Below are positions 162 to 17,710 of a DNA stretch of 40,486 bases, piece by piece. Numbering within the stretch: position 1 is the first letter of the stretch; each line of letters opens with the position of its first letter. This DNA comes from Minisyncoccia bacterium (GTDB taxonomy: Bacteria > Patescibacteriota > Minisyncoccia > Phycocordibacterales > UBA918). The notes beneath the pieces are model-generated. The model made no database searches. It was not told the DNA's origin and saw nothing but the letters and a program-made list of their open reading frames with translations. Made by a program: the position numbers and the translations under genes. The stretch is from positions 1 to 40,486 of the forward strand of contig JBGSJJ010000003.1 in assembly GCA_041742075.1 (NCBI GenBank). Reading direction: 5' to 3'.

Positions 162-229
162 GAGCCGGGGTCGAGAACACTTAGAAGATTTGGAACATAG
201 TGAACAAATATACTTAGTGATTCGTGACC
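162..229 (+). repeat. Structured repeat, copy 1 (3' domain only)
   Basis: GAGCCGGGGTCGAGAACACTTAG...CTTAGTGATTCGTGACC, similar to 263-381, 16702-16798 and 17604-17710. Confidence 0.85.
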
Positions 230-262
230 ACAGAGCAATTTCAGCTTCGTTCTCGTGTGATA

Positions 263-381
263 GACGGAGACATGTTGCTTCAGCAACAGTCGAGTCGGAG
301 TCGAGAGTACTTACTAGAATTGGAGCAAAGCGAACAATTATAGTTAGATGAAACTATCTAGGAGATAATTTCATCGTGACC
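263..381 (+). repeat. Structured repeat, copy 2 (with an extra inserted hairpin)
   Basis: GACGGAGACATGTTGCTTCAGCAACAGTCGAGTCGGAGTCGAGAGTACTT...CGTGACC, closely matching the reverse complement of 16702-16798. Confidence 0.85.
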
Positions 382-521
382 ACAAAGCAGAGTAGCTTCG
401 TACTATATATATACACTAGGTAATCAATACTAAATAATAAGAAACATAACAGCATAGCAAAATAACTTGACATATTGACAATAGTATGTCAATCTTTCCT
501 TAGATCAAATGGAGAACATTG

Positions 522-1160
522 ATGACCGACCATTCCTTGCCCTATCACTATAAGTCCCCTCTCCGACCGCAAGAAATTGCACGCTATGAGTTTGAGATTG
601 CGTGGGGAATTCCGCACGCATCACCTGAATCTTTCCAGCAAACAGCTGAGAATGTTAGGTATATCAATACCGGATTTGTCGCTGAGGTTGGAGAAGTTTA
701 CTATAGCTTTCCTACTCCTTTTAGTTGGAAAGACGAAGAAATTCAGCACATAGCAAGAAGTGTTCTTCTTCTCCTTCGATCAAAAAAAGTTTTGACGACT
801 TCAGAAATAGCACAGTTGTGCTGGCTTGAGAGAAGTCTTGAGGAATCTTTTTTTCAAGCGATGCAGGAAGGTGACGATACTCCATCAGACAGTTTCTATC
901 CATTGCATCGCGACCTGATAAACGAACAACAGCTAGCGCTACTCCAGCGTCGCCTCCAAATTCAAGTAAAGGTTTTGTTTGAAACTACTGACGAAGACTC
1001 AATGTCGAGCGTGAACATTCCAGAAGAAATAATTCTTATGGCAGAACAGGCTAGAGAACATTTTGATGAGATAATCATTGAAAGCGACTCAGATACCGTT
1101 CAAAAATTGAATGTCCTGATCCGAGAACGAATGCAGAACTACCTCACTCAGATCATATAG
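522..1160 (+). CDS. Hypothetical protein
   Basis: 212-aa ORF, GGAGA upstream, terminator downstream, no recognised motif. Confidence 0.7.
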   Translation: MTDHSLPYHYKSPLRPQEIARYEFEIAWGIPHASPESFQQTAENVRYINTGFVAEVGEVYYSFPTPFSWKDEEIQHIARSVLLLLRSKKVLTTSEIAQLCWLERSLEESFFQAMQEGDDTPSDSFYPLHRDLINEQQLALLQRRLQIQVKVLFETTDEDSMSSVNIPEEIILMAEQAREHFDEIIIESDSDTVQKLNVLIRERMQNYLTQII

Positions 1161-1174
1161 CGCACTACAACTCA

Positions 1175-1212
1175 CCCTGAAAGTCACACTGACTTTCAGG
1201 GTAACTTTTTTA
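1175..1212 (+). terminator. Rho-independent terminator
   Basis: ACCCTGAAAGTCA-CAC-TGACTTTCAGGGT followed by a T-tract. Confidence 0.8.
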
Positions 1213-1303
1213 TCCGCCTGACTACCCTAGACACAACCCCACAACCCCCTCATGTTATACTTTTTATACTAAAAGTATTAGTCAATAACGCTCTTTCAAA
1301 CGT

Positions 1304-2923
1304 ATGTTTTGTCATAACTGTGGGGCCAAGTGTGAACCAGAGATGAAGTTTTGTAAGGAGTGTGGCGCACAACTCATCGCTTCCACAACTCCTCCTTCCC
1401 TTCCAAGTGAGCCAGCAGAGGCAGCCTCGCGCGCGCAACGCTTTCTCCATCTTATTGTGGATACGTTTGGAATGTACCTCTTCGCAATTTTTGTAGGGGG
1501 TCTGGTAGTAGTCATATTCAGAAACGAAACGGTGGGTATTGCCGTTGGTTGGCTAGCTTTCTTTTTATACTACTTTCTGTTTGAGAGTCTGTTCCAAACT
1601 AGCTTAGCTAAAAAGCTTACCAGTACAGTGGTCGTGAGTGTAGATGGTAGTAAACCGAGTGTCGGTCAAATATTTATTCGCTCGATTGCGAGATATATAC
1701 CTTTTGAACCCTTGTCGTTTTTGTTCTATGGGGTCCACCCCACTAAGGGTTGGCATGACAGACTATCAGGTACGTTGGTAGTTTCAAACAAACTCACTGC
1801 AGAACAAATCAAAACTATCGCCCCAAACCAACGTTCAAACAATCTACTTGTAATAATATTTGCTGTTGTTATATGTATGATTATTATGTTTGGCTTAGCG
1901 TCTTCTGTTATCTTATCTTCGCTTGCGGATAGTAGAGACAAAGGCTTAGATGCTGCCATGAAGTCCAGTGTAAACAACTTAAGAGCTCAAGCCGAACTGT
2001 ATTACTATGATGCTGAGAAAAACAGCTACGCTGGATTTTGTGAAAGCGAAACTTTTTACAATTTTACTGGTAAATTCGACTCCTCAATCGATTGTAATGA
2101 CTCTGCTAATACGTATGTCTTTAACGCAGAGCTTAGTAATGGAAGTTACTACTGTGCCGACAACACCGGGTATGCAGGCCCCGTAGTCCAGTATATAGAC
2201 GTTACAAAAGAAAGCTGTACTGGTGCAAAGACGGAAAGTCTACCCATTGCTATAGAGCTGGAGAACAGGAAAAATGCTGGTACCGACGCCATGCGCAAAT
2301 CGAGCACTAACTTCTTACGAGTAGATGCTGAACTTTATTATGAATCAAACAGTAGTAGCTATGATGGGTTTTGCGAGAGCACTGCCGTATATCAAACTAT
2401 CAATGACGACAACATAGCTATCGACTGCAATGACACAACTCAAGAATATGCCCTGAGCACACGCCTCACTGACGGAACGTACTATTGCATAGACAGCGAT
2501 GGCAACACTGGTACATATAAAGAAAGTCTCAAAGGTACTACACTCTGTTTAAATAATAGATCAGCAAATGAAACAAAAGTAGAACGTACCCTCAAATATG
2601 TAGCGCCTACAGAAGAGGAAGTTGACCGGGGTATCGTAGATGGTGTACAAGCAGTGGTTTTACTAGGTGATAACTACTACGCGATGACCAAAGACGGCTA
2701 CGGGGGATTCTGTGCAACAAAGAGCTACCTTGACTACCAGGAGCGATTTTTACCGAATCAACTTCGTTGTATTGCCAATGATTTTAGTTTTGCTATTACT
2801 GCTTTTCTTTACAATGGTAACCACTACTGCTTAGATAGTAATGGCTATGCCAGGATTTCAAGAGACTATATTGATATCAGTTCTGGAAGTTGTGCGAACA
2901 CACCACCTGCAAGTACACAATAG
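1304..2923 (+). CDS. Zinc-ribbon + RDD-family membrane protein with three tandem pilin-like Cys-rich domains
   Basis: N-terminal CxxC-x10-CxxC; RDD motifs (RFLHLIVD, RSIARYIP, HDRLSGTLVV); then a TM helix and repeats of LRAxAELYY...YxGFC...CND...YYCxDxxG. Confidence 0.8.
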   Translation: MFCHNCGAKCEPEMKFCKECGAQLIASTTPPSLPSEPAEAASRAQRFLHLIVDTFGMYLFAIFVGGLVVVIFRNETVGIAVGWLAFFLYYFLFESLFQTSLAKKLTSTVVVSVDGSKPSVGQIFIRSIARYIPFEPLSFLFYGVHPTKGWHDRLSGTLVVSNKLTAEQIKTIAPNQRSNNLLVIIFAVVICMIIMFGLASSVILSSLADSRDKGLDAAMKSSVNNLRAQAELYYYDAEKNSYAGFCESETFYNFTGKFDSSIDCNDSANTYVFNAELSNGSYYCADNTGYAGPVVQYIDVTKESCTGAKTESLPIAIELENRKNAGTDAMRKSSTNFLRVDAELYYESNSSSYDGFCESTAVYQTINDDNIAIDCNDTTQEYALSTRLTDGTYYCIDSDGNTGTYKESLKGTTLCLNNRSANETKVERTLKYVAPTEEEVDRGIVDGVQAVVLLGDNYYAMTKDGYGGFCATKSYLDYQERFLPNQLRCIANDFSFAITAFLYNGNHYCLDSNGYARISRDYIDISSGSCANTPPASTQ

Positions 2924-2965
2924 CGGGGTTATAATTTATAGATAGTTATTGATAATAAACAATGT

Positions 2966-3586
2966 ATGTATTGCCGAGTTTGCAAAAAAAGTGTTACCGA
3001 AGCTGAGAAGTTTTGTACCGGGTGTGGAAACAATCTCCAGGTACCGGGCGAGGTACTCGAAACCTTAGCGGTCGTAGAACCAGCAACAGTTACTCCTAAT
3101 ACCACTAGTATGGACACACAAAACCAAAATAATGAAGAAGCAGTTACTATCGAAAAAAGCTTGCTGATGCTTTTATTTGCTCTCACTGTTATTCTTTTCT
3201 GTACCTGGGGCTACCAGAGTGTTCGTTTCTTACTGGCCTCAATGTTTGGCGTAGAAACTCCGTATTCGGTGATTGATGGCGTGGTGGGTCTTATCGGCAT
3301 GATTGGTAGCGGTCTCGTCTTTGCCGGTGCTGCACTCTGGTGGAAAGAAAACATCTCAGCTCTTCCTTTTTTAACCTACGGTGCTATTTTGTTTGGTATT
3401 AAGAATATCTTCGATATTTGTAACGAGATTATCATCTTTGCCAACATGAACTCAGTCATCACCCTTGACATGATTGACGAGCTTGCCCTCGATATCGGTA
3501 ACCAACTCTTCCAACTCGCATTCTGGGTGTTTGTTTACTACTACTTCAAGTCAAAGGTGAATTCGAAAATGTCGAACTTAAACTAA
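2966..3586 (+). CDS. Zinc-ribbon-containing membrane protein
   Basis: MYCRVC...FCTGCG followed by about four hydrophobic helices. Confidence 0.75.
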   Translation: MYCRVCKKSVTEAEKFCTGCGNNLQVPGEVLETLAVVEPATVTPNTTSMDTQNQNNEEAVTIEKSLLMLLFALTVILFCTWGYQSVRFLLASMFGVETPYSVIDGVVGLIGMIGSGLVFAGAALWWKENISALPFLTYGAILFGIKNIFDICNEIIIFANMNSVITLDMIDELALDIGNQLFQLAFWVFVYYYFKSKVNSKMSNLN

Positions 3587-3596
3587 AGAAATATAA

Positions 3597-3629
3597 TAAA
3601 AGAGGCCCGCCAATGGCGGGCCTCTTTTA
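3597..3629. terminator. Bidirectional terminator between convergent genes
   Basis: TAAAAGAGGCCCGCCA-A-TGGCGGGCCTCTTTTA. Confidence 0.85.
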
Positions 3630-3650
3630 CTTTTGAAATCACACCCTTGT

Positions 3651-4118
3651 TTACTTCATTAATTCTTTTACATCAGACAGTAGCTGAAGCGCATGGCTAG
3701 CAGGATCTACTTTCGGGTAAACCGCTGAAATGGTTCCGTCTGGATTTATGAGGTACGAAACCCGCAGTATGCCTAAGTACGTCTTGCCAAAGAGAGACTT
3801 CTCACCAAACGCACCGTAGACTTCAATCATAGTCCCGTCTGGGTCAGACAGAAGCGTAAACGGAAGCTTGTACTTTTCGGCAAACTTTTTGTGCGACTTT
3901 ACACTATCTTTACTCACGCCCACCACTGACACCCCAAGTTTCGAAAACTCATCATAGACTTCAGCAAGTGTACAGGCTTCTTTGGTGCAGCCCGGAGTGT
4001 CGTCCTTTGGATAGAAGTATATAATGGTCCACTTTCCAGCCTGTATTGCATTGGTTTGCTCTTGCCCGTCTTGATCAAGCAAAGAAAAAGCTGGAGCACT
4101 CGTACCGACGGCGAGCAT
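3651..4118 (-). CDS. bcp: Peroxiredoxin, BCP/PrxQ family
   Basis: YFYPKDDTPGCTKEAC motif, GVSKD, FPFTLLSD-like segment. Confidence 0.92.
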   Translation of the reverse strand: MLAVGTSAPAFSLLDQDGQEQTNAIQAGKWTIIYFYPKDDTPGCTKEACTLAEVYDEFSKLGVSVVGVSKDSVKSHKKFAEKYKLPFTLLSDPDGTMIEVYGAFGEKSLFGKTYLGILRVSYLINPDGTISAVYPKVDPASHALQLLSDVKELMK

Positions 4119-4120
4119 AC

Positions 4121-4474
4121 CTAGGCTTGAAACTCTTCGCGAACAATCTTTCCCTCTTTTACGCTATAGACCGCTAGTTCATGCATCTTTTCTCGACCGC
4201 GTGACTTGTAAGTAATGTCCATACCAAAGACAATCGCGAAACTCTCGTCAGCTACCACAGGCTCACTCACGGTTACCTCGTGTATTTCCACAACATCGGC
4301 TTCCCAATCCACCGCCTTTTTATTGATAGCGGTCATACCGACATACTCGGTAGCCTGACCACCCCAATTCTCTACACTGACAGTCGCGTCAGTGTAAAAC
4401 TCCGCGTACACTTGAGCATGATTATTTTCTCGGTTAAGAGCTACAATACGGTCGGCGATTTCTTTGGTAGTCAT
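4121..4474 (-). CDS. SnoaL-like / NTF2-family protein
   Basis: Start refined to MTTKEIA. Motifs YTDATVSVE and MHELAVYSVKEGKIVREEF. Confidence 0.8.
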   Translation of the reverse strand: MTTKEIADRIVALNRENNHAQVYAEFYTDATVSVENWGGQATEYVGMTAINKKAVDWEADVVEIHEVTVSEPVVADESFAIVFGMDITYKSRGREKMHELAVYSVKEGKIVREEFQA

Positions 4475-4572
4475 AGATACTAGTTTTAACAAATAATGTC
4501 GACAGTATAGCACCCGAAATTACTCTAGGGAAAAGCTCGTCTCCTTAAAGACTTCTGCTATACTATTTTTGT

Positions 4573-5328
4573 ATGAAAATTGTAACTGTGAACATGGAGG
4601 GAAGAAAAAATCTTACTCGAATTGAATCATTTTTGAAGAACGAAAACCCTGACACAATTTGCTTGCAGGAAGCTCCCGAATTCTTCTCTCTCTGGCTCGA
4701 AAAAGCCGGTTACAAAACTGCTTTTGCCCCAATAGTGATTCGCAACGATCAGGGCGAACCCTTTTTTCCTGAGGGAGTTATGTTTGCCAGCCGGTTTCCC
4801 TTTACTCACAAAACTGAGTACTACCATCGACCCCAAGCCGAGATTGTCCCTCATGACCGCGCCGATAGAGACGGGACGATAGCTGCAGCAGTTATTATCG
4901 CTACTGTTACTCACCCTGATGAGGGCGAATATGTATTGGGTACCACCCACGTCATGGTAACAGAACGAGGAGTCACCAACGACCATCAGCGAGCTGGTGT
5001 CGGGAGGTTGCTCGCCATCCTCGAACAGGAAAAACCGCACGTACTTTGTGGGGACTTCAATATGCCACGTGGCGTTAATGAACTCTATGAAGACTTTATT
5101 AAAAAGTATACGGACTGCATTCCGGCGCAATACACGAGTAGTCTCGACCGTTCGATTCATAGACTTGGCAAAGACCCTGCTCTTGCTTCCCCGATGTTTG
5201 AAAGTTATATGGTTGATTATATTTTCACCCAATCCCCGTACGTTGCAGAGAACGTCCGTTTACAATTTGGTGTTTCTGACCACGCTGCTGTAGTTGGCGA
5301 CATAGACATTGTTGACAGAAAAGGATAA
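4573..5328 (+). CDS. Endonuclease/exonuclease/phosphatase (EEP) family protein
   Basis: MKIVTVN, DTICLQE, LCGDFN, VDYIF and SDH motifs. Confidence 0.9.
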   Translation: MKIVTVNMEGRKNLTRIESFLKNENPDTICLQEAPEFFSLWLEKAGYKTAFAPIVIRNDQGEPFFPEGVMFASRFPFTHKTEYYHRPQAEIVPHDRADRDGTIAAAVIIATVTHPDEGEYVLGTTHVMVTERGVTNDHQRAGVGRLLAILEQEKPHVLCGDFNMPRGVNELYEDFIKKYTDCIPAQYTSSLDRSIHRLGKDPALASPMFESYMVDYIFTQSPYVAENVRLQFGVSDHAAVVGDIDIVDRKG

Positions 5329-5370
5329 AGATGTACTCTTTGCCCAGAAACTGAATCTTCATGGAAGGAA

Positions 5371-5721
5371 ATGGCAATGTCTTCAGCAAATTCTACATCT
5401 CAGCTCTTTGGACAGTACGTTGCCAAGAGTCTTATCAGTATTCTTGAAGTCGGAGAGTATGTGTACTCCACTCATTATGCAGGTGGATGGATTGGCGTAT
5501 ACACACAAGATAATGGCAGAATTAGAAACGAGAAATACTTTAGAGTGTCGTATGTTGACTGTTGTGGCGAAAAAATGACCGAAAACTACGTGACACTTCC
5601 CAAATGGGGCTTCATATGGATACATCGTGATGATGTTGAAAATGAAAAGCAGAGACGTCGTGACAAACTTCATCAAACTGTTCAAAGGATTTTTAGAGCG
5701 AGTCGGGGTTTCAAAGTCTAG
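5371..5721 (+). CDS. Hypothetical protein
   Basis: 116-aa ORF with GGAAGGA upstream and a hairpin/T-tract at ~5744-5771. Confidence 0.55.
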   Translation: MAMSSANSTSQLFGQYVAKSLISILEVGEYVYSTHYAGGWIGVYTQDNGRIRNEKYFRVSYVDCCGEKMTENYVTLPKWGFIWIHRDDVENEKQRRRDKLHQTVQRIFRASRGFKV

Positions 5722-5827
5722 TTAGAAGACATCGATATACCTGAGGCCGCCTTACCTGGCGGTCTTTTTTTATTAATAAGACTAATCAACTAAATCGACT
5801 TGTAGAAAGTAGACTACGTAAATGCTC

Positions 5828-7642
5828 TTACTCAACCGTCACTGATTTGGCTAAGTTGCGTGGTCGGTCGACATTGAGCCCTTTTGCTACCCCGACGTAG
5901 TACGCAAACAGCTGGAGCGGTACAGTCGACACGATTGGCTGAAGCATCGGGTGTACCTTTGGCATATAGATAACATCGTTGGCTATCGCTCTCATGTTCA
6001 CATCACCATCAGTCGCGAGCACAATCACTGGTGCGAGTCGTGCCCGCACCTCTTCAATATTTGAGACCATTTTTTCGTAGACTTCGTCTTTCGGCGCAAT
6101 GGCAAACACAGGGAAATTTTTATCAAGCATTGCAATCGGACCGTGTTTGAGTTCTCCCCCTGCGTACGCTTCCGCATGTACATATGCCACTTCTTTTAGC
6201 TTAAGTGCCCCCTCATACGCAATTGGCGCATGATACTTTCGCCCAATATACATCATGTCACGATAGTCAGCGTACTTTCGAGCCACTGCTTCTATTTCAG
6301 GCGCTCGCTTCAGCATCTCTGCAAGAACCTGCGGTAGCTGTTGTAGTTGTTCGGCAATAAGTTTTCCTTCTTCTTGAGACATTCCTCGCTCACGCCCAAT
6401 GAGGAGTGTGATAAGTGCCATCACCGTGAGTTGAGAAATAAACGCCTTCGTTGAAGCAACTGCCACTTCAGGACCGGCATGGTTATAGACACCAGCGTCG
6501 GTCTCACGGGCAATCGCTGAACCGACTACGTTTACGACACTCAGCGTAAGCAATTTCATTTCTTTCGCTTTCTTCAGTGAGGCTCTTGTGTCGGCTGTTT
6601 CACCAGACTGACTCACCGCAAGCACGGCTCCCTTCTTTTCCGGGTAGACTTTTTTGTAGCGATACTCACTGCCGAGATCAACTTCTACCGGCAAATTGGC
6701 ATACTCTTCGAGCATATAGCGCCCAACAGAACCAGCATAATAGGCAGAGCCACAACCAATAATCTGCAATCGATTAAGTGCCATTAGTTGTGGCAAGACC
6801 GGTTCTAGACCCCCCAATTTTGCCCGACCCTTTTCCGGGATAAGTCGACCACGTATCGTGTTTTCAATTACAGACTTCGCTTCGAAAATTTCCTTCAGCA
6901 TGAAGTCGTCATAGCCATTTTTTTGAACTGACTCGACGTCCCACTCTACCTTTTCGGCCAAGCGCTGTTTCTTTACACCGGCTAGTGTCTGCACCTCATA
7001 TGAGTCTTTCGTCACGAGTGCTATCTCACCATCATCAAGGTAGACCACATCTTTGGTGTGTATTAAAAGAGCTGATGGGTCAGACGAAACAAAGTTTCCA
7101 TCAACACCAAGGCCTAGTACAATCGGACTCCCCATTCGGGCGACTAAAATTTCTCCAGGCTTTTTTTCACTCATCACCGCCAGGCCATAGGTACCCCGAA
7201 CGGCACTGAGCGCCTGCGCCACTGCTTCACGTAGGTCACCACGATAAAACGAGCCTATAAGTTTTGTCAGCACCTCGGTATCAGTATCAGAATAAAACTG
7301 AATACCTTGCACTGAAAGACCCTCTTTCAGTTCACGGTAGTTTTCAATAATCCCATTGTGTACCAACCAGATTGTCTCACTCATGTCTTTGTGCGGATGC
7401 GCATTAAGTTCAGTCGGTGCACCATGGGTGGCCCACCTAGTGTGGGCAATACCACTGGTTCCTGGAATAGTGTCGGTAATTTTGCTCGCGAGATTATCGA
7501 TAGGACCAACTGACTTTACCACCCCAAACCCGGGCACGTAGATACCGGCTGAATCATAGCCACGGTACTCAAGTGTGCGCAAACCCTCAATCAAAATTGG
7601 CTCTGCTGTGTGCGTCCCAACGTATCCAAATATTCCACACAT
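5828..7642 (-). CDS. glmS: Glutamine--fructose-6-phosphate aminotransferase
   Basis: Starts MCGIFG (catalytic Cys1); LEYRGYDSAG, HTRWATHG, SQSGETADT, PRNLAKSVTVE. Confidence 0.98.
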   Translation of the reverse strand: MCGIFGYVGTHTAEPILIEGLRTLEYRGYDSAGIYVPGFGVVKSVGPIDNLASKITDTIPGTSGIAHTRWATHGAPTELNAHPHKDMSETIWLVHNGIIENYRELKEGLSVQGIQFYSDTDTEVLTKLIGSFYRGDLREAVAQALSAVRGTYGLAVMSEKKPGEILVARMGSPIVLGLGVDGNFVSSDPSALLIHTKDVVYLDDGEIALVTKDSYEVQTLAGVKKQRLAEKVEWDVESVQKNGYDDFMLKEIFEAKSVIENTIRGRLIPEKGRAKLGGLEPVLPQLMALNRLQIIGCGSAYYAGSVGRYMLEEYANLPVEVDLGSEYRYKKVYPEKKGAVLAVSQSGETADTRASLKKAKEMKLLTLSVVNVVGSAIARETDAGVYNHAGPEVAVASTKAFISQLTVMALITLLIGRERGMSQEEGKLIAEQLQQLPQVLAEMLKRAPEIEAVARKYADYRDMMYIGRKYHAPIAYEGALKLKEVAYVHAEAYAGGELKHGPIAMLDKNFPVFAIAPKDEVYEKMVSNIEEVRARLAPVIVLATDGDVNMRAIANDVIYMPKVHPMLQPIVSTVPLQLFAYYVGVAKGLNVDRPRNLAKSVTVE

Positions 7643-7705
7643 ATAATCCAAGCTAGCTTATATGCTTTATAGTACTACATGTACTGCTAGATAGTTTCAA
7701 ACACA

Positions 7706-8272
7706 CTACACCGCACGGATGTCGGCTTCAGAAATAGCGCCAGCACGATGGATAGTGACCTCGTCACCCACTACCCGTACTACTGTCGAAGCCATTCCGC
7801 TTCGTGGACCGTCATCAATAGAGCGATCAATCGCTATAGTTTCGCGACCCGCAAGAGTAAATTGTTTGAGAATTTCTTCAGGCGTCGGCAGTGTTGGCAT
7901 ATCACTCACGTTGGCACTCGTGCACGTCAATGGAGAATTATGCTCTTCCATAAACTCGGCAATGAGCTTTTGTGCCTGCGGGTCAGGCGAGATACGAAAG
8001 CTCAGCGTCCCATCGTGATAGACCGGCCCTCGTGGTACTCCCGCCCAAGCAGGCACTACCAGAGTCAGCGACCCCGGAAGGAAAGCTTCGGCGATTCGCC
8101 TGGCTCTTGATGAAAGTTCTCCGTACTGCTCGATATCAGCAATGCTACGAACCAGAAGCGACACAGGCTTCCCCTCATCTCTCCCCTTGAAGGCATACAG
8201 CTTTCTTAGTTCTGCTTCATCAAAGGCGTTAACACCGAGCGCGTAGATTGTTTCTGTTGGGTAGAGAATCAT
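7706..8272 (-). CDS. tsaC: Threonylcarbamoyl-AMP synthase (YrdC/TsaC family)
   Basis: YPTETIYAL, KGR...KP, TSANVS, ASTVV motifs. Single YrdC domain. Confidence 0.9.
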   Translation of the reverse strand: MILYPTETIYALGVNAFDEAELRKLYAFKGRDEGKPVSLLVRSIADIEQYGELSSRARRIAEAFLPGSLTLVVPAWAGVPRGPVYHDGTLSFRISPDPQAQKLIAEFMEEHNSPLTCTSANVSDMPTLPTPEEILKQFTLAGRETIAIDRSIDDGPRSGMASTVVRVVGDEVTIHRAGAISEADIRAV

Positions 8273-8297
8273 ACTAAAAAGTATATAATATAAGACT

Positions 8298-9313: not shown

Positions 9314-9353
9314 CAATATAGCCGTTTATTTCATATAATGTATCGCTAATTAG

Positions 9354-9410: not shown

Positions 9411-9415
9411 AGTGA

Positions 9416-9519: not shown

Positions 9520-9546
9520 TGTAAGTGTTATACTGACCAATACACT

Positions 9547-10404: not shown

Positions 10405-10437
10405 CTATCTCTAGTTGATTTAGGTATAGTGCCCACA

Positions 10438-11610: not shown

Positions 11611-11679
11611 TTATTGACTTTTACTGCTTTTGTAGCAATATGCTACTAGAAAAGTACACAGAAGCAATCGAGGTGACGT

Positions 11680-12165
11680 ATGGGCTTTACACATTTTTTT
11701 GACCCTGTGACAGAGCGAGTCATTCCCAAAGACTTACGGAATAATGGCTACAAGAATCACTCCGCTCAAGCTGTGCTTACTGCCTGGGGAATTATCCTCG
11801 GCAAACAACATCCGAAACGTCCCGACGTTCGGCACGTGACTTTGCCAGCCGGGTGGCAGATTACCTGTCCGTATGGGCCAGAAATGGAGATATGTTACCT
11901 GATTGACCAAAAGGGTAATGTTCGTTCTATCCTGTTTTACGGAAAGCTTACGTATACGCTCCTAAAACAAGCAGTTACCATTGATGCATCCGGCAATGAG
12001 GATGACAGCTGGGTTCGCGTCTTAGTGAAGGAAAAACTGGTATTCAAAACCCTAACAGTGGCTCCTGAGGAGCTGGAAATTACCTACGACGACCATTTCA
12101 AAGTAGCCGAAGAGTGGGCCGACCGAGAATACCCCAACCGACACGACCCACTCGCGTATTGGTAG
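11680..12165 (+). CDS. Hypothetical protein
   Basis: 161-aa ORF with TTGACT and GAGGTG upstream and a terminator hairpin at ~12172-12220. Confidence 0.7.
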   Translation: MGFTHFFDPVTERVIPKDLRNNGYKNHSAQAVLTAWGIILGKQHPKRPDVRHVTLPAGWQITCPYGPEMEICYLIDQKGNVRSILFYGKLTYTLLKQAVTIDASGNEDDSWVRVLVKEKLVFKTLTVAPEELEITYDDHFKVAEEWADREYPNRHDPLAYW

Positions 12166-12307
12166 CTACCCCGCCGCCCTAAAGAAACTGGCAAAAGCCG
12201 TTTCTTCCGGGCGGCTTTTGTCTTTTTAACAAACAATTCCCGGGGCAAGAAAGGCTTTATGCTTAGTTTTTTTCATGCTACTATGCGTTTCTAACTACCT
12301 CTATCTT

Positions 12308-14491
12308 ATGAGCTCAGAACAGCAAAATACAACGAATATTCCTCCTATCTTCCTCAAACCATACGAACCAAGCGAACACGAAGCACGGCTCTATAAAATG
12401 TGGGAGGAATCTGGTTTTTTTAATCCCGACATCTGTATTGAAAAAGGTATAACAAAGGCTGACGCCGAAACCTTTTCTATCGTCATGCCTCCCCCAAACG
12501 CCAACGGCTCACTCCATGCCGGCCATGCCCTTTTTGTGACCGTCCAAGACATCATGATTCGCTACGCGCGTATGCAAGGTAAGCGCACCCTCTGGATTCC
12601 AGGAGCCGATCATGCAGGCTTTGAGACCCAGATTGTGTATGAAAAAAAACTTGAGAAAGAGGGTCGTTCTCGTTTCCAAATGACTTCTGAGGAGCTTTAC
12701 GCAGAAATTATGCAGTTCACTCTTGCGAACAAAGACTTCATGCTTGGACAAATTCGTGAGCTCGGCGCTTCGTGTGACTGGTCACGACTGTTGTTTACGC
12801 TCGACCCACGAGTAATTGACATAGTGTACAAAACCTTTAAGCAGATGGAGGAAGATAAGCTCGTCTACCGAGGAGCGCGGATTGTGAACTGGTGTCCAAA
12901 ACATCAGACCTCACTTTCAAACCTTGAGACAAAGTCAGTCGAACGAAAGGATCCTTTCTATTATTTCCAATACGGACCATTTGTTATCGGTACCGCCCGT
13001 CCAGAAACTAAGTTTGGCGACAAGTATGTTGTCGTGCACCCAGACGATACGCGCTATGCTGAGTTTACCCACGGGCAACAGATAGAACTCGAGTGGATAA
13101 ATGGCCCGATCACCGCTACCGTCATCAAAGATGAGGCGAGCGATCCAGACATGGGTTCGGGCGCGATGACTATCACCCCCTGGCACTCTGGGGTGGACTT
13201 TGAAATTGCTAAGCGACACAACCTCGACTACGAACAAGTCATCGACTGGAAAGGTAAACTCCTTCCCATCGCAGAGGAGTTTACCGGAATGAATATTATG
13301 GAAGCACGGGCTAAGATTGTTGAAAAACTTGAAGCCAAAGGACTACTCGTTAAAATTGATTCTGAGTACATGCACTCAGTACCGTGTTGTTTTAAGTGTG
13401 AACGAGAAATCGAACCCCAAATCCGTGATCAATGGTTTGTGACTACCAAACCGCTGGCTGAAAAAGCCCTTGGTGCCGTGGCTGACAAGAAAGTTACGTT
13501 TGTAACCGAGGCACAGGAACGTGTCTTTAAACATTGGCTCGAAAACATTGAGGACTGGAATATTTCAAGACAGATAGTGTGGGGTATCCCGATTCCTGCC
13601 AAAATCTGTACCAAATGTGGTCACGGGATGGTAGACCTTGAAGACACCATAACGGAGTGTACAAAGTGCGCTGGTCAAGTAGAAAAAGACCCCGACACGT
13701 TTGATACCTGGTTCTCCTCTGGTCAGTGGCCACTGGCGACCACCAACTACCCCGACAGCCAAGACTTCGCTGACTACTACCCTACCTCAGTGATGGAGAC
13801 TGGGAAGGACATTATTTTCTTCTGGGTATCACGCATGATCATGTTTGGACTCTATCGAACTGGAGAAGTGCCATTTAAATCAGTCTACCTCCACGGCATG
13901 GTACTCGATAAGCAAGGCAAGAAGATGAGCAAAAGTAAAGGCAACGTCATCGCACCAAGTGAAATCCAGAGCAAATACGGTACTGACGCCCTCCGTATGG
14001 GACTTATCGTAAACAACGCCCCTGGGACCGACATGAACCTGGACCCAGACAAAATTAATGCCAACAAAAAATTTGCCAACAAACTTTGGAACATTACTCG
14101 CTTCGTACTTGACGCTACAGCTGACTTACCAAGCGGAGCAACACTTACAGAAGAAGACCAAGCAAACATCGCAACCATACTCACAGTAAATACTACTGAA
14201 ATAACCAAGTACATGAACACTGACCGGTTTGACTTGGCTTCTGAAAAAATCTATCACTTTGTGTGGGACTACTTTGCCAGTGAACTCATTGAAGCATCAA
14301 AGCCCCTCCTCGCTTCAAACGATACCGCTGTGAGAGCTTCACGGCAGGCTCTGTTAGCCGAATACCTCGTTACTTCTGTTAAACTCCTTCATCCATTTAT
14401 GCCATTTGTGACCGAAGCAATTTGGCAAGAGTTGCCAAAGACTATGAAAGACCAGGATATCTTGATGGTAGCCCCTTGGCCGACTAACTAA
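12308..14491 (+). CDS. valS: Valine--tRNA ligase (short form)
   Basis: PPPNANGSLHAGH, DHAG, DWNISRQIVWG, DTWFSS, KMSKSKGN. Ends at APWP without the C-terminal coiled coil. Confidence 0.97.
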   Translation: MSSEQQNTTNIPPIFLKPYEPSEHEARLYKMWEESGFFNPDICIEKGITKADAETFSIVMPPPNANGSLHAGHALFVTVQDIMIRYARMQGKRTLWIPGADHAGFETQIVYEKKLEKEGRSRFQMTSEELYAEIMQFTLANKDFMLGQIRELGASCDWSRLLFTLDPRVIDIVYKTFKQMEEDKLVYRGARIVNWCPKHQTSLSNLETKSVERKDPFYYFQYGPFVIGTARPETKFGDKYVVVHPDDTRYAEFTHGQQIELEWINGPITATVIKDEASDPDMGSGAMTITPWHSGVDFEIAKRHNLDYEQVIDWKGKLLPIAEEFTGMNIMEARAKIVEKLEAKGLLVKIDSEYMHSVPCCFKCEREIEPQIRDQWFVTTKPLAEKALGAVADKKVTFVTEAQERVFKHWLENIEDWNISRQIVWGIPIPAKICTKCGHGMVDLEDTITECTKCAGQVEKDPDTFDTWFSSGQWPLATTNYPDSQDFADYYPTSVMETGKDIIFFWVSRMIMFGLYRTGEVPFKSVYLHGMVLDKQGKKMSKSKGNVIAPSEIQSKYGTDALRMGLIVNNAPGTDMNLDPDKINANKKFANKLWNITRFVLDATADLPSGATLTEEDQANIATILTVNTTEITKYMNTDRFDLASEKIYHFVWDYFASELIEASKPLLASNDTAVRASRQALLAEYLVTSVKLLHPFMPFVTEAIWQELPKTMKDQDILMVAPWPTN

Positions 14492-14542
14492 TATTTATGG
14501 AAAAAAGATTTATTCCAGCTGCGCTAAGCAACGTGGACGACA

Positions 14543-14818
14543 TTGAAAAAGCTGGTACTGACTCACGATATAGTGAATCCAGCTTTGGTTATGATGAAGC
14601 TCTCGGTGAGAGCTAACTTACACATACCTGGTATCGGATTATGGAAATTAACCGATGTAAGTTTGTCTGAGCCAAATGAAGCTCTCTCTGTCATTACCGG
14701 CTATGACGAAATGCTTGATGCTGAAGTCACGTTTGAGATACTCGAGCTTGGTAAAACACTTGTCCCAGTCAAAGTGACCGTAAATGGCACAGCGGTGTAT
14801 ACAGGCCCATCTCACTAA
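14543..14818 (+). CDS. Hypothetical protein (may be the 5' half of an interrupted gene)
   Basis: 91-aa ORF in the same frame as the next ORF, separated from it by one TAA. Confidence 0.4.
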   Translation: MKKLVLTHDIVNPALVMMKLSVRANLHIPGIGLWKLTDVSLSEPNEALSVITGYDEMLDAEVTFEILELGKTLVPVKVTVNGTAVYTGPSH

Positions 14819-14836
14819 CGTACCACTTACCTTAAG

Positions 14837-15211
14837 TTGCAAATACATGCCAATCCGGCTATAGTTTCCCGCAGTAACTCGTACAAAATAAGCGAGCTCT
14901 GTCGAAATCTCAACCAGGACAAGGTGTACATCATGACGATAAGAAAATACAAGCGTGGCGAAATAAACCCGAGCGCTAAGAAAGTTTCTCTTATAGACTA
15001 TGATGGTATTGCATCTAGTGTTCTCATTATTACCAAAATTGATTTTGATCCTGACACAGTCACAAGTGACGGTAGCCCAGAAAAAAGGATGATGATTGGT
15101 CCGGTTAAACTAGAAACGAGCGAAACAGAACGAACCCTCTTTGGCTATGTTGTGAAGGATTTAAAAGGTAATCTCATCCCAAATCAGTTGAGAGAGGTGT
15201 GTTTAATATGA
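14837..15211 (+). CDS. Hypothetical protein (may be the 3' half of an interrupted gene)
   Basis: 124-aa ORF followed by a terminator-like hairpin at ~15221-15243. Confidence 0.45.
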   Translation: MQIHANPAIVSRSNSYKISELCRNLNQDKVYIMTIRKYKRGEINPSAKKVSLIDYDGIASSVLIITKIDFDPDTVTSDGSPEKRMMIGPVKLETSETERTLFGYVVKDLKGNLIPNQLREVCLI

Positions 15212-15314
15212 ACTAAGAGCGGGGGCGTCACGGCGCCCCTTTTGTTTACCTGGTTGGCCAGCAATTCGGCAAGAGAGACACTCGAACGTAACGAGCAATG
15301 TTACAATTATCGCA

Positions 15315-16022
15315 ATGGTTTCAACGCACTTTGCAATCGCATTTTTAGGCGGACTTATTCCAGCTTTGTTTTGGCTTTGGTTCTGGCTTCGTGAAGACCG
15401 TGAGAAACCAGAATCCTATCTCTTGATTGCTTTGGCTTTTATCGGTGGCATGATGGTGGTTCCGATTGCGTTACCCCTTCAACAACTTGCCCTCCAAGCC
15501 TACAGTGGCGACAACCTGGTCTTGGTGTGGGTCACCATAGAGGAAGTGCTCAAGTATAGTGCTGCCTTACTGATTATTCTCTGGAACAACGCGGTTGATG
15601 AACCAATCGATGTCATTATTTACATGATAGCCGTGGCGCTTGGCTTCGCTGCGCTTGAAAATACCTTATTTATCTTCAATGCGCTTGACGCGACTGGTAC
15701 CGCGAGCTCGCTTGTAACCGGAAAACTACGATTTGTCGGCGCTACCCTTCTCCATGTTTTGGCCTCAGGAACAGTTGGTGCCTGTGTTGCATTCGCTTTT
15801 TATAAGTCAAAAACCGCTATGGTCTTAGCGGGTTGTCTGGGGTTATGCCTAGCTGTCGTGTTGCATGCACTGTTTAACTTTTTTATAATGGAAGGAAGCG
15901 GAGAAACCATCTTAGGTGTCTTCCTCTTTGTCTGGATGGGCATCATTGTCCTGTTGCTCATCTTTGAAAAGATAAAAATACTCGAAGTCCATCACGTAAG
16001 ACCACCTAGTACATCATTATGA
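15315..16022 (+). CDS. PrsW-family intramembrane metalloprotease
   Basis: DREKPE, IEEVLK, ALGFAALEN, LLH and LHALFN motifs; multi-TM. Confidence 0.9.
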   Translation: MVSTHFAIAFLGGLIPALFWLWFWLREDREKPESYLLIALAFIGGMMVVPIALPLQQLALQAYSGDNLVLVWVTIEEVLKYSAALLIILWNNAVDEPIDVIIYMIAVALGFAALENTLFIFNALDATGTASSLVTGKLRFVGATLLHVLASGTVGACVAFAFYKSKTAMVLAGCLGLCLAVVLHALFNFFIMEGSGETILGVFLFVWMGIIVLLLIFEKIKILEVHHVRPPSTSL

Positions 16023-16531
16023 AAAAAACATCATTCCTCGAACGCCTCACCGGCGCCGTAACTATGAACAAGTACGACGAAGTACTTGCTGACGATCACG
16101 AGTTCTCAGAAGAAGAACCTCGAGCCAAACAAGCCTACGAGGAAGAGTCAGAGTGGCACGGAGGCCAAGACTATGAAGAAGAACCCCAAGAAGGCGAACT
16201 GCCAGTTGACATGTACCACACGGGTGACGCTATCGTGATTAGAGCGTTGGTTGCGGGAGTACCGCCAGAAGACCTTGATATTGCTATCACACGGGACATG
16301 GTGACTATAAAAGGTATTCGTGAAGAATACCAAGAAACTGGTACTGATGACTACTACCACCGCGAGCTGTTTTGGGGTAGTTTCACTCGAACCCTCGTTT
16401 TACCTGAAGAAGTTATTATCGATGAAGCTGAAGCGCACGAGAAGCACGGCATGCTTGAGATTAGGCTCCCTAAAGTTGATAAGGATCGCAGTACGAGACT
16501 CAAAGTTCGCTCCAACCTCCAGCCAAAGTAA
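16019..16531 (+). CDS. Hsp20/alpha-crystallin small heat-shock protein
   Basis: PVDMY, WGSFTRTLVLP, HGMLEIRLPK. ATGA overlap with the PrsW gene. Confidence 0.93.
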   Translation: MKKTSFLERLTGAVTMNKYDEVLADDHEFSEEEPRAKQAYEEESEWHGGQDYEEEPQEGELPVDMYHTGDAIVIRALVAGVPPEDLDIAITRDMVTIKGIREEYQETGTDDYYHRELFWGSFTRTLVLPEEVIIDEAEAHEKHGMLEIRLPKVDKDRSTRLKVRSNLQPK

Positions 16532-16535
16532 AAAA

Positions 16536-16563
16536 CAAACGACCCCAAGGTGGGGTCGTTTTC
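16536..16563. terminator. Terminator hairpin
   Basis: AAACGACCCCA-AGG-TGGGGTCGTTT. Confidence 0.8.
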
Positions 16564-16580
16564 GTTATGCTTTAAGTATT

Positions 16581-16890
16581 TTGGAGCAGGCTCGGTCATG
16601 AATCACAAGTTTCCTCTTTCTCTTCTTACAGAAGCTGTACACCATTGTGCGCAGGCACAGTACTTCCCAAGCACCGCATATGCAAACTATGAGTAAGGCT
16701 CGGTCACAAGTTACTAAGCATAATTGTTCGCTTCACTCCAATTCTGCTAAGTACTTTCGACCCCGGCTCGACTGTTGCTAAAGCAACATGTCTGCGCCCT
16801 TCGAGCCTGCACGTACTGTGCGCAGGCACAGTACTTCCCAAGCACTGCATATGCAAAAAGCCGCCTATGGGCGGCTTTTTGCATATGCAG
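16581..16890 (-). repeat. Array of alternating-orientation tRNA-Phe 3'-end copies with structured repeat copy 3 (16702-16798) and a degenerate copy (16594-16609)
   Basis: CGAGCCTGCTCC(C)AA pieces in both orientations; duplicated TGTGCGCAGGCACAGTACTTCCCAAGCAC; long palindrome 16837-16898. Confidence 0.8.
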
Positions 16891-16963
16891 TGCTTGGGAG
16901 CAGGCTCGAACTGCTGACCCTTCCCTCTTCAGGGGAATGCTCTACCAACTGAGCTACCCAAGC
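16891..16963 (-). tRNA. tRNA-Phe(GAA)
   Basis: GCTTGGG/CCCAAGC acceptor, TTCCC-CTGAAGA-GGGAA anticodon arm, GTTCGAG T-loop. Confidence 0.95.
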
Positions 16964-17011
16964 AAATGAGTACATAAGAATTAGATTTTAATCTCATTCT
17001 TACTGTGCGAA

Positions 17012-17118
17012 TGCAGCTTGGGAAAGATTCCTCTTACCAAGCAAACGAAGAACAGTGGGCAAGCTGGCTTGTACACTGGTTCTGAGTGCAGCTTGGGGAA
17101 GCTTTGCTTACCAAGCAA
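17012..17118. repeat. Two short direct repeats resembling the tRNA-Phe acceptor ends
   Basis: TGCAGCTTGGG-N10-CTTACCAAGCAA at 17012-17044, and the same with N9 at 17087-17118. Confidence 0.7.
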
Positions 17119-17189
17119 GTGACGTGCCAACTTGTTCATCCAACGTGCCAGCTATTGTACCTGTTTTTGGTCTTTTTTCAATGCCACTA

Positions 17190-17474
17190 TTACAAGCCTC
17201 GGTATAAGTCCACCACACCTTGTAACTGCTCAAGATCAACCATACCTCCGGTGCTTTGCGTACTGCTAGAGCCTGACACAAGCCCTAAATAAGGGCTAAG
17301 AAAGTAGTAGAATAAAATAAACGGCAACCCCAGCATCAGTGCGTATAAAGCTACTTTAAACCAAAAGGCTATCCGTGCATCACGAATCATTTTCTTTAGC
17401 ATTTGGTTATTCTCTTCTAAGAGCACATTGTTCGCACGTGCAATTTCTAGAAGCGATGCATGATCTTCTGGCAT
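17190..17474 (-). CDS. Small hypothetical membrane protein
   Basis: Coiled-coil LLEENNQMLKKM followed by a TM helix; TG-t-TACAAT upstream. Confidence 0.8.
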   Translation of the reverse strand: MPEDHASLLEIARANNVLLEENNQMLKKMIRDARIAFWFKVALYALMLGLPFILFYYFLSPYLGLVSGSSSTQSTGGMVDLEQLQGVVDLYRGL

Positions 17475-17603
17475 ATTCCTACTATTGTAACAGATTATTG
17501 GTTTTATGGGGCTCTAGGAATCGAATCCTACAGATTCCAGTACTTGATTGGAATTTGTGAACCTATGCATATTCTTGGGGTCAAGTTGCTAATTATATTG
17601 TTT

Positions 17604-17710
17604 GGTCACGAATCACTAGGTATATCTTTTGCTTCGCTTCAAATCTACCAAGTGTTCTCGACCCCACCTCGCGGTTTTTGCTCTTTGGTGAGCAAAAACA
17701 TCGCTGCGGT
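17604..17710 (-). repeat. Structured repeat, copy 4 (downstream of tRNA-Arg)
   Basis: ACCGCAGCGATG-hairpin-CGCGAGGTGGGGTCGAGAACACTT...AGTGATTCGTGACC. Confidence 0.85.

Follow-up and report, generated by a model that had tools for sequence, protein, structure and literature searches.

The dispersed repeat found in the window, by which we mean the whole 40,486-nt stretch of Minisyncoccia DNA analysed here, is best read as the part conserved at the centre of a short patescibacterial insertion element, which carries no gene and targets tRNA T-loops. We consider it somewhat more likely than not that this element is mobile but non-autonomous, and that it is recognised as DNA in a folded, single-stranded state. 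Four copies were found where the original prediction had placed them (A, 165–229, forward strand; B, 263–381, forward; C, 16702–16799, reverse; D, 17604–17711, reverse), matching the R1 covariance model with E-values from 1e-9 to 1e-19. The proposed repeat of about 100 nt is real, but the true unit is larger, an outer helix and flanking copies of the target also belonging to it. The core, E, comprises two hairpin domains, D1 and D2, and is predicted to form a three-way junction closed by the outer helix, P0. In the unit, a tRNA gene is followed by the T1 hairpin, by the tRNA 3′ end in antisense (S′), by E and by a direct repeat of that 3′ end (S) running from T-loop C56; the unit measures 150–250 nt (~0.2 kb) and usually lacks any ORF. 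The copies and parts in the window are:

165–229, forward: copy A, D2 only, without D1 and the upstream parts (R1, 86.5 bits)
263–381, forward: copy B, D1 and D2, the 3′ strand of D2 interrupted by a 28-nt hairpin at 348–375 (R1, 48.7 bits on 295–355)
16583–16594, reverse: displaced tRNA-Phe 3′ fragment, 12 nt from T-loop C56, closing the older unit (exact direct match)
16595–16686, reverse: older degraded unit behind copy C
16696–16702, reverse: decayed direct repeat (7 nt) of the tRNA-Phe T-loop/T-stem; 3′ strand of P0
16702–16766, reverse: D2 of copy C, a long imperfect hairpin with fixed unpaired bases (R1, 88.8 bits, E 8e-19; covariation)
16767–16799, reverse: D1 of copy C, with P1, P2 and the apical hairpin (fold, covariation)
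16800–16810, reverse: S′b, antisense of the T-loop and T-stem 3′ strand (8 nt), then GAA; 5′ strand of P0
16811–16835, reverse: AG-hairpin-CGT module, splitting the antisense copy 8–9 nt from its E-proximal end (sequence)
16836–16845, reverse: S′a, 10-nt antisense of the tRNA-Phe acceptor 3′ strand and discriminator (exact inverted match)
16846–16889, reverse: T1, a perfect 20-bp palindrome with a GC core and T run, terminator-like, abutting tRNA-Phe (sequence)
16890–16963, reverse: tRNA-Phe(GAA), target gene of copy C (ARAGORN; Rfam tRNA, 67 bits)
17500–17603, reverse: debris of further units behind copy D
17604–17711, reverse: copy D, with AA, D1 (17668–17711) and D2 (17604–17667) (R1, 76.6 bits; fold z −6.5)
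17712–17757, reverse: T1 of copy D, whose stem takes in just 3 bp of the tRNA 3′ end (sequence)
17758–17830, reverse: tRNA-Arg(CCT), upstream of copy D (ARAGORN; Rfam)

At copy C, the 3′ part of tRNA-Phe from the T-loop onward constitutes the first copy of S, and the final base of D2 coincides with T-loop C56. The inverted match at S′b extends over 11 nt, a length reached by 0 of 200 shuffles. T1 has homologues at tRNA-Ala, -Arg and -Phe loci of this and other genomes, with a conserved T bulge of 2–3 nt, and the AG-hairpin-CGT module, with a covarying stem, recurs at tRNA-Lys, tmRNA and relatives' loci. Behind copy C, the older unit retains one half of a T1 along with the acceptor in antisense, part of an AG-hairpin, a small TGTAA-loop hairpin resembling that of E2 (a second family with the same layout as E) and the 3′ end of a D2. 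The remnant previously noticed at 16594–16609 is the last 16 nt of this older D2, followed directly by the 12-nt tRNA-Phe fragment. Copy D lies at the tRNA 3′ end, not in the T-loop, and has no direct repeat longer than 3 nt; in the debris behind it lie a D2 variant represented by its 3′ end, a small hairpin with TGTAG and a 3′ fragment that looks like tRNA but matches none of the tRNAs of this genome. Copy A has lost its 5′ half, and the end of a multi-copy IS3-family element lies 25 nt upstream of it.

The claim of a fold preserved by compensatory base changes held in larger alignments. All four window copies fold better than shuffled sequences (z −3.4 to −6.5; 0 of 200 shuffles equal). Among 15 full elements, 97% of cells were paired and 24 of 36 pairs had changed on both sides; none of 500 shuffles came as high, and slid controls paired at only 27–37%. 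For D2 alone, 127 distinct copies gave 96.6% paired cells and compensatory change in 20 of 23 pairs. Both-side changes affected all three P2 pairs and two of the three P1 pairs of D1, and P0 was 96.6% paired on the 15 elements, which had been picked for having both repeats. D2 is a 60-nt hairpin that starts GGGGTC and is closed at its foot by GGTC pairing with GACC. Its unpaired GA, GG and G-T bases are fixed and its apical loop is conserved, as anticipated. Target-derived repeats, P0, the T-loop insertion point and the scarcity of G-U pairs are parts that the original prediction did not contain. The copies belong to no named family: none matched Rfam at the gathering score, at which the window gave only three tRNA matches and the ribozymes (hammerhead, twister, hatchet, pistol and HDV-like) went unmatched, and at E ≤ 10 no hit on 1–500 or 16500–17960 overlapped the copies meaningfully.

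The sequences flanking E come from the target. At 10 loci in this genome, E lies between an inverted and a direct copy of the 3′ end of its tRNA; the 44 tRNA and tmRNA genes of the genome include 18 with an inverted copy, 22 with a direct copy and 16 with both. These direct repeats extend for up to 20 nt (at tRNA-Met) from C56, the base on which D2 ends. In relatives, the direct repeat begins exactly at the D2 end in 11 of the 23 loci examined. A wider count there took in 81 D2 copies lying no more than 220 nt from a tRNA: inverted copies of 8 nt or longer accompany 52 of them, junction direct repeats of 9 nt or longer 24, and both features 21. Direct repeats flanking the unit are 9–22 nt long, and up to 75–85 nt. 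At tRNA-Ala, S′ has A opposite U70, where the tRNA itself has G3; S′ was therefore templated as antisense and not copied from the tRNA 5′ half. At unique protein-gene 3′ ends, S′ is antisense of that very gene (the rplL end on C10, C13:68666, L018, L024 and L033), so both S and S′ derive from the target. Conversely, D2 is identical at a tRNA-Met of one genome (G002) and a tRNA-Val of another (G020), whereas S and S′ differ.

Copies C and D both lie just downstream of tRNA genes on the same strand, as had been noticed, and the association extends across the 1-Mb genome: 12 of 17 R1 matches follow a tRNA or tmRNA on the same strand, at most 400 nt downstream, a placement expected for ~0.9% at random place and strand. 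Element orientation always agrees with the upstream gene, which may encode any isoacceptor, tmRNA (another classic integration target) or a protein. Of 24 genomes sampled from the genus, 23 have the element, as do 7 of 16 other families of the order; it was found in none of 150 genomes taken from elsewhere in the phylum. Its presence also varies at a single site: at the orthologous tRNA-Phe locus of 26 species, both repeats occur in 10 and neither in 6, and the E types differ between species. In one genome (G010), an 85-nt S-T1-S′ block is duplicated on either side of E, and the two blocks differ by 2 mismatches, a sign of a recent event. Tandem arrays of units also occur. Target duplications at the flanks together with variable presence at one orthologous tRNA are the signature of a gene-less mobile element; with the strong covariation, they bear out the earlier suggestion that selection acts on a folded structure such as that of a non-autonomous mobile element. 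No excision product or empty-site joint was seen in contigs of four DNA runs aligned to the window, in which rare forms are invisible.

E might instead encode a structured, functional RNA that is produced by the transcription unit of the tRNA and acts in tRNA 3′ processing, termination or stability. P0, the antisense acceptor and the AG-hairpin would then form a tRNA-like minihelix for RNase P, RNase Z, the CCA-adding enzyme or protein binding, and the duplications would be a mere trace of how the gene spread. We regard this as unlikely. Strong covariation of every helix and the constant orientation relative to the upstream gene agree with it, the side hairpin breaks the antisense strand near the acceptor/T-stem junction as in tRNA, and the conserved tandem G/A-rich internal loops and minihelix-like shape suit RNA. 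The pair counts in D2 cut both ways: among 2,780 cells, 2,647 are Watson-Crick, 45 G-U, 22 A-C and 66 other, so that G-U is about twice as common as A-C among mismatches, yet its share is 1.6%, where tRNA stems of this genome reach 5.7% (29 of 507 paired cells). This near absence of G-U pairs favours DNA over RNA, as do the terminator-like T1 between the tRNA and E and the lack of any promoter-like site seen upstream of copies C and D. An RNA gene also sits poorly with a tRNA-Phe locus that is empty in 6 of 26 species, with flanks that have mostly decayed (the junction repeat is kept in only 24 of 81 copies) and with copies behind any isoacceptor and behind protein genes. In the single RNA run screened, the fraction of sampled words found was 0.05, and the run did not contain the region.

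The duplications could also have arisen with no dedicated enzyme, the module being spread through gene conversion or through template switching during replication. Microhomology would be provided by the universal T-loop sequence and its complement on the two sides of E, and fold-back copying at the terminator hairpin would make S′. Nearly all intact copies indeed have the T-loop complement to the left of E and the T-loop to the right, and the fresh event in G010 is a plain S-T1-S′ duplication around E, as two template jumps would give. Modules are shuffled among copies, an identical D2 going with different D1 and T1, and no enzyme tracks the element. We nevertheless consider such an origin very improbable. 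T1 is usually unlike the terminator after the displaced copy, yet conserved across loci with different tRNAs, so four coordinated jumps would be needed; T-loop microhomology is missing at the unique protein-gene ends; and the conserved unpaired bases and apical loop suggest a protein partner.

Co-occurrence with HUH/Y1, reverse transcriptase or integrase genes, which the original prediction proposed to measure, was not borne out: no enzyme is tied to the element, and Y1/RAYT, IntI and additional Xer genes do not track its copies. RVT_1, TnpB and Y2_Tnp were not found in this 99.9%-complete genome; some repeat interiors are possibly unassembled, so absence of an enzyme from the genome is unproven. 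The single RAYT-like Y1 gene of the genome scores 34 bits, where the cut-off is 80, and the hairpin that flanks it is a different, unrelated one. D2 copies occur without any Y1 match in three genomes (17, including the fresh one, in G010; 21 in G020; 9 in G006), Y1 genes without D2 in four others, and none of 12 Y1 loci has D2; bona fide TnpA-sized matches are present in four genomes, with no D2 nearby. PF00589 identifies two recombinases in this genome: one is strain-specific, the other an Xer-like gene shared by 37 of 41 genomes. When these two and the RAYT-like protein were used in tblastn searches of 140 loci (717 kb) around copies, the only match was an Xer ortholog located 4 kb away from the closest copy.

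These searches bear on the idea that the units are minimal, integrase-less remnants of tRNA-integrating islands (CIME-like), with attL and attR left after loss of cargo. In that case, D1 and D2 would serve in double-stranded form as arm sites or sites for accessory proteins, and a tyrosine integrase would be supplied by phage, island or unbinned DNA. Such an origin explains a crossover in the T-loop and the use of tmRNA, and two relatives have 1.4–1.9-kb ORF-bearing insertions bounded by a D2 and a tRNA fragment. The target gene is regenerated and the far end marked by a displaced 3′ fragment, as stated for islands in PMC4383910. Several findings make this explanation quite doubtful. Compensatory changes that preserve pairing but not sequence are unexpected for double-stranded protein sites. 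Neither identical D2 sequences at different tRNAs nor the presence of copies at unique protein-gene ends is explicable by a sequence-specific integrase with a carried attP. Also against it, we know of no attP site with an internal antisense copy of the target. The recombinase searches yielded no candidate beyond the Xer-like gene and the one strain-specific gene, and the exact D2 pattern had no match among 2.9 million viral contigs.

We therefore return to a mobile element acting as folded single-stranded DNA, and propose how it might move. Insertion occurs after the C of the T-loop GTTC in tRNA and tmRNA genes and, more rarely, right at a tRNA 3′ terminus or close to a protein-gene 3′ end, just before the terminator. 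The integrated order is the gene with an intact S, then T1, S′, E and the displaced second S. By rebuilding the tRNA 3′ end, the element would leave the gene functional, as with a genomic island in a tRNA gene, and each fresh insertion into the live gene would displace older units downstream, giving tandem, decaying arrays. The S:S′ and S′:S stems may set the cleavage points at the feet of hairpins with fixed extrahelical bases, between C and GA on the left and between GACC and GA on the right. The architecture, the insertion point, the derivation of S and S′ from the target, the covariation and the variable presence among species are observed directly. From these we infer that DNA rather than RNA is recognised, that hairpins guide strand transfer and that the enzyme acts in trans; action as folded single-stranded DNA is suggested by analogy with IS200/IS605 ends, integron attC and CTX-phage attP.

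Among known systems, the element resembles the REP/BIME/REPIN group, which RAYT (Y1 HUH) transposases mobilise, in being a gene-less, multi-copy, clade-restricted palindromic module downstream of genes, with mosaic and tandem arrangements and stems kept by compensatory change; it is extragenic, at 3′ ends of transcription units, and this genome has a RAYT-like gene. REPs, however, measure 20–40 bp and bear a GTAG or CGTC tag at one end, according to PMC3733652. The element, at 150–250 nt with at least three hairpin domains, has no such tag, aims at the T-loop and bears inverted and direct target copies. We rejected a REP/REPIN-RAYT assignment because D2 is 60 nt and untagged, and RAYT genes neither track the element nor are flanked by it. 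With tRNA/tmRNA islands it shares integration inside a gene, which is restored, and a far end marked by a displaced piece of the gene's 3′ part, features that PMC4383910 describes for Islander islands. Unlike them, it has an internal antisense target copy, is ~0.2 kb rather than kilobases, usually has no ORF and retargets among isoacceptors and even protein-gene ends; it has no integrase of its own, and the 140 loci around copies gave none apart from the one Xer ortholog.

A MITE derived from a DDE transposon was rejected because the inverted arms are target sequence, different at every locus, and the duplication (3 to 85 nt) has no fixed length. Integron attC was rejected because the junctions have no GTTRRRY core and, at the level of the PF00589 domain, only two genes are found. 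IS91-type rolling-circle elements, whose target is GTTC/CTTG, were rejected because PF04986 (Y2 transposase) has no match in this genome at E ≤ 0.05. The literature searched contained no description of a tRNA T-loop element with inverted and direct target copies.

In IS200/IS605 ends and their gene-less derivatives (PATEs), attC and CTX attP, imperfect hairpins with extrahelical bases stand at the element end, the cleavage site pairs with a short segment at the hairpin foot, and structure is conserved over stem sequence. IS200/IS605-type insertion takes place 3′ of a short fixed word, makes no target duplication and involves two end hairpins that resemble each other. In contrast, our element is flanked by direct repeats, and its target-derived stems have no counterpart in these systems. 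It nevertheless resembles them in its junction 3′ of the T-loop GTTC, in the D2 hairpin that abuts its right end and in the GGTC/GACC pairing at the foot of that hairpin.

The four copies of the repeat named in the original prediction were located in the window as follows:

165-229 (+), repeat copy A
263-381 (+), repeat copy B
16702-16799 (-), repeat copy C
17604-17711 (-), repeat copy D

The repeat is the ~100-nt core, E, of a larger unit and comprises two hairpin domains, D1 (helices P1 and P2) and D2. The two-domain fold claimed for it was borne out, each of the four copies beating 200 of 200 shuffles (z -3.4 to -6.5), and so were the claimed compensatory stem changes: among eleven copies in the bacterium's own genome (996 kb, 16 contigs, 99.9% complete), 16 of 23 D2 pairs had changed on both sides, a number reached in 0 of 500 shuffles. 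The alignment of these eleven D2 copies, in which 93.6% of cells are paired, served to build a covariance model, R1; a model-fitted alignment of 127 distinct D2 copies has 96.6% paired cells and compensatory changes at 20 of its 23 pairs. Across 15 full elements from the own and related genomes, the outer helix P0, P1, P2 and the D2 helices were 97% paired, the figure for P0 being partly circular because these rows were selected for the presence of both flanking repeats, a circularity of which the D1 and D2 figures are free; compensatory pairs numbered 24 of 36, and slid controls paired at 27-37%. A scan with a strict regular expression for capped hairpins gave 20 matches against 1-4 in shuffles and was set aside because it missed known copies. 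The original prediction recognised no named family in the repeat, and Rfam has none for it, the only matches at gathering score over the whole window being three tRNAs, and permissive scans of both copy-bearing regions returned nothing relevant. A hammerhead was rejected by eye against the consensus, which the junction strand order (GAA, then GG, then none) does not resemble.

The predicted association with tRNA genes extends to the whole genome, in which ARAGORN called 43 tRNA genes and one tmRNA gene. R1 gave 19 matches at E<=1, two of them reverse-strand echoes of palindromic copies; 12 of the remaining 17 lie at most 400 nt downstream of a same-strand tRNA or tmRNA gene, three are hosted by protein-gene 3′ ends, and the last two, copies A and B, are separated by 25 nt from the terminus of a multi-copy IS3-family element with which the contig also ends. 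A same-strand tRNA was likewise present at most 400 nt upstream of 26 of 32 R1 matches (30 loci in relatives) and upstream of 78 of 110 matches in 80 named Patescibacteria records (median gap 131.5 nt), and the tRNAs behind which copies sit represent many isoacceptors. Of the 44 tRNA and tmRNA genes of the own genome, 18 had an inverted copy of the gene end (8 nt or more, within 200 nt), 22 had a direct copy (9 nt or more, within 400 nt; two of these are the neighbouring tRNA) and 16 had both; R1-type D2 was found at only 13. Within the window, ARAGORN calls a 92-nt tRNA-Arg(CCG) at 17849-17940 (-) that falls below the gathering score of the Rfam tRNA model and may be an insertion-bearing gene or a miscall.

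At tRNA loci of the own genome the full unit has a constant downstream order: the intact tRNA; T1, a palindromic, terminator-like hairpin directly after it; S′, an antisense copy of the tRNA 3′-end segment S; GAA; D1; D2; and a direct repeat of S. The first base of this repeat is the final C of D2, which corresponds to T-loop C56, and the repeat measures 20 nt at tRNA-Met, 17 at tRNA-Ala(GGC), 17 at tmRNA and 22 at tRNA-Thr. A small AG-hairpin-CGT module often interrupts S′ at 8-9 nt from the end of S′. Pairing between S′ and the displaced S forms P0, which makes E a three-way junction. At tRNA-Ala, S′ carries an A opposite U70, whereas the tRNA itself has G3; the inverted copy is thus genuine antisense and does not reproduce the 5′ half of the tRNA. 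In relatives, the repeat starts exactly at the D2 end in 11 of 23 loci, and the 81 copies with a tRNA nearby include 52 that retain 8 nt or more of inverted copy, 24 that retain 9 nt or more of junction repeat and 21 that retain both; the others look decayed. Copy C has the complete layout with a direct repeat decayed to 7 nt, and downstream of it lies an older, broken unit whose last part is a tRNA-Phe fragment of 12 nt; copy D, which has no repeat, is placed at the extreme 3′ end of tRNA-Arg. At 17500-17530 (-), behind a small TGTAG hairpin, lie the T-loop, T-stem and acceptor strand of a tRNA-like sequence, a 3′ fragment that matches no tRNA of the own genome (best exact match 10 nt) and may have been brought from elsewhere or left by a lost gene. 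Copies A and B have 3′ flanks (230-262 and 382-410, +) that are alike over ~25 nt, which would be expected of tandem insertions of B and A at a single target.

Where a copy lies behind a unique protein gene, it is the end of that gene that is present in antisense and direct copy, for example at an rplL-like end on contig C10, at the gene end at C13:68666 and at three loci in relatives (L018, L024 and L033). S and S′ thus derive from the target. A mosaic unit behind a protein gene at C16:58947-59348 (-) consists of D1, an extra module, E2-like hairpins (below) and D2, with a 73-75-nt direct repeat on its flanks and no antisense copy. In one subtype, T1 and D1 can be recognised as homologous between tRNA-Ala, tRNA-Arg(TCG), tRNA-Arg(GCG) and tRNA-Phe loci, and identical D2 occurs at tRNA-Met of one relative (G002) and tRNA-Val of another (G020); conserved parts thus flank the target-matching segment on both sides. 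We know of no named element type in which conserved parts flank a segment that matches whichever target, and could derive no single mechanism that yields conserved T1 and E around a target-specific S′.

Some tRNA and tmRNA genes of the own genome have target copies without R1-type D2, and at these we found a sister core family, E2, with the same order of antisense copy, core and direct repeat. E2 comprises two hairpins, a long one and a small one with the loop TGTAA, and is likewise closed by a target-derived P0; 18 of its 23 predicted pairs are compensatory. Its model, R2, gave 27 matches in the own genome at E<=0.01, about 23 of them strong, and 17 of the 27 lie at most 400 nt behind a tRNA. 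Examples in the own genome are:

C4:90025-90111, E2 core
C11:37159-37243, E2 core
C12:816-903, E2 core

Across 26 species of the genus, the orthologous tRNA-Phe locus has both repeats in 10, the inverted copy in 20 and neither in six; by sequence reading, the locus carries different E types, tandem arrays of 2-3 units, or a bare tRNA-plus-terminator site. The arrays suggest that new units would enter at the live gene and displace older ones downstream. In one species (G010), the whole S-T1-S′ block (85 nt) is present on both sides of E with only two mismatches, so that the event was recent. Among 20 sequencing runs, the region was present in four DNA runs of one study (X1-X4), and the sole RNA run contained 0.05 of the sampled words. 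Contigs of X1-X4 on 18.5 kb of the window, which cannot show rare forms, contain no excision joint and no empty site, and break at tRNAs. Just upstream of tRNA-Phe, at 16965-17145, 179 nt are replaced by 19 other letters in the X1 and X2 contigs, which is a strain variant. At two loci in named Patescibacteria records (L121:5050-6560 and L110:635-2670), the tRNA and a D2 with a tRNA 3′ fragment after it are 1.4-1.9 kb apart, with open reading frames between (163 aa in the first, with no Pfam family; 108 and 356 aa in the second); these insertions may be larger, cargo-bearing relatives of the element.

With one fixed G-T position left out, the 2,780 cells of D2 pairing comprise 2,647 Watson–Crick, 45 G-U, 22 A-C and 66 other, compared with 29 G-U in 507 paired cells of the acceptor and T stems of the 43 own-genome tRNAs; the low G-U content is a hint and no test, as the copies are related and the alignment is model-fitted. 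The Watson–Crick pairing and further features point to a structure read in single-stranded DNA, towards which we lean over a less probable role as RNA: T1 is located between the tRNA and E, no promoter-like site lies upstream of copy C or D, presence among species is erratic, the hairpins hold fixed extrahelical bases, and the right-end word GACC pairs with GGTC at the hairpin foot. Structure is read in single-stranded DNA at IS200/IS605 ends, attC sites and CTX attP.

A test for co-occurrence with HUH/TnpA-REP, RT or integrase genes had been proposed, and no such enzyme was found for the element. RVT_1, TnpB, IS110 and Y2 were not found in the own genome, a lone IS110-like match (22 bits) being a 138-aa YqgF/RuvX-like protein, named by reading its sequence. 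Of the two tyrosine recombinases present, one is Xer-like; a search with the other, on C16, gave matches in 37 of 41 genomes, nearly always to Xer-like genes of 23-33% identity. The C16 enzyme, which was also rejected, is strain-specific, with a single homologue at 40% identity, in G030. One large serine recombinase lies on C8 beside tRNA-Ser. A 233-aa RAYT-like Y1 protein scores 34 bits against a cut-off of 80, and RAYT/Y1 was rejected as mobiliser for want of co-occurrence and flanking copies: Y1 is missing from relatives G010, G020 and G006, which have 17, 21 and 9 copies, while D2 is missing from four families with Y1 and was found at 0 of 12 Y1 loci. The RAYT-like gene (C10:13745-14443, -) is preceded by a 44-nt perfect hairpin that differs from those of the element; half of this hairpin is repeated at the 3′ end of the gene itself, and gene and hairpin may constitute a small REP-like system of their own. 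A tblastn search of 140 loci surrounding copies (717 kb), with the two tyrosine recombinases and the RAYT-like protein as queries, turned up a single Xer ortholog, which lies 4 kb from the closest copy. Both window ends (1-140 and about 40425-40486) are ends of the IS3-family element, which codes for an OrfA-like HTH protein of 87 aa and a C-terminus of the rve type. Identical copies of the first 140 nt are present at four further sites, of which three are contig ends, and a relative with 72% identity is present at another four. Contig depth at the window ends is ~12 times that of the flank; the IS3-family element explains the contig breaks and, as an ordinary DDE element, is unrelated to the repeat.

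R1 matched in 23 of 24 sampled genomes of the genus (2-25 matches each), in 7 of 16 other families of the order and, under stricter filters, in 0 of 150 genomes across the rest of the phylum, a sample in which R2 matched in one. The exact D2 pattern occurs in at least 118 stretches of public genomes, titled Paceibacterota/Paceibacteria, Kaiserbacteria, Nomurabacteria, Campbellbacteria, Parcubacteria and 'Saccharibacteria', plus three odd bins; it had 0 matches in viral contigs, and a phage origin was rejected. Patescibacteria have genomes of about 1 Mb with very little repeated DNA, and despite this the own genome holds about 17 core copies and about 23 strong sister-family matches. Fragments of the element mislead tRNA annotation and break assemblies, and are markers of strain history in uncultured lineages.

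We put forward, as a speculative and rather improbable proposal, a self-retargeting element whose own hairpin arms are rebuilt from each target; it may be mobilised by a housekeeping activity that recognises, in single-stranded nucleic acid, a mimic of the tRNA acceptor and T-arm. Each insertion would leave direct, inverted and direct copies of the new target and, as the arms would be rebuilt from it, neither a fixed attachment site nor a carried guide would be needed; candidate movers would be an Xer-like recombinase, a topoisomerase, the replisome or tRNA-processing enzymes. If true, self-retargeting would be a transposition logic without earlier description and would explain why between roughly a third and a half of all tRNA genes in these tiny genomes are decorated. 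Whatever moves the element, its mechanism, if worked out, may show a new guide-free way of inserting DNA at a chosen site.

We file the element among the miniature palindromic mobile elements. Searches of open literature gave no description of a hairpin element tied to the tRNA T-loop in Patescibacteria. The nearest kinds are REP/BIME/REPIN elements, tRNA-integrating islands and hairpin-end single-stranded DNA elements, each of which departs from it in at least one defining feature. Unlike REP/REPIN-RAYT systems, the element has no GTAG/CGTC tag and no tracking RAYT; unlike tRNA-integrating islands, it has no integrase; and it has a target duplication, whereas IS200/IS605 makes none. It combines the island-like regeneration of a tRNA, REP-like hairpins and IS200/attC-like structural recognition, and adds to these the target-derived inverted and direct arms; such arms, copied from the target, are a genuinely new feature.
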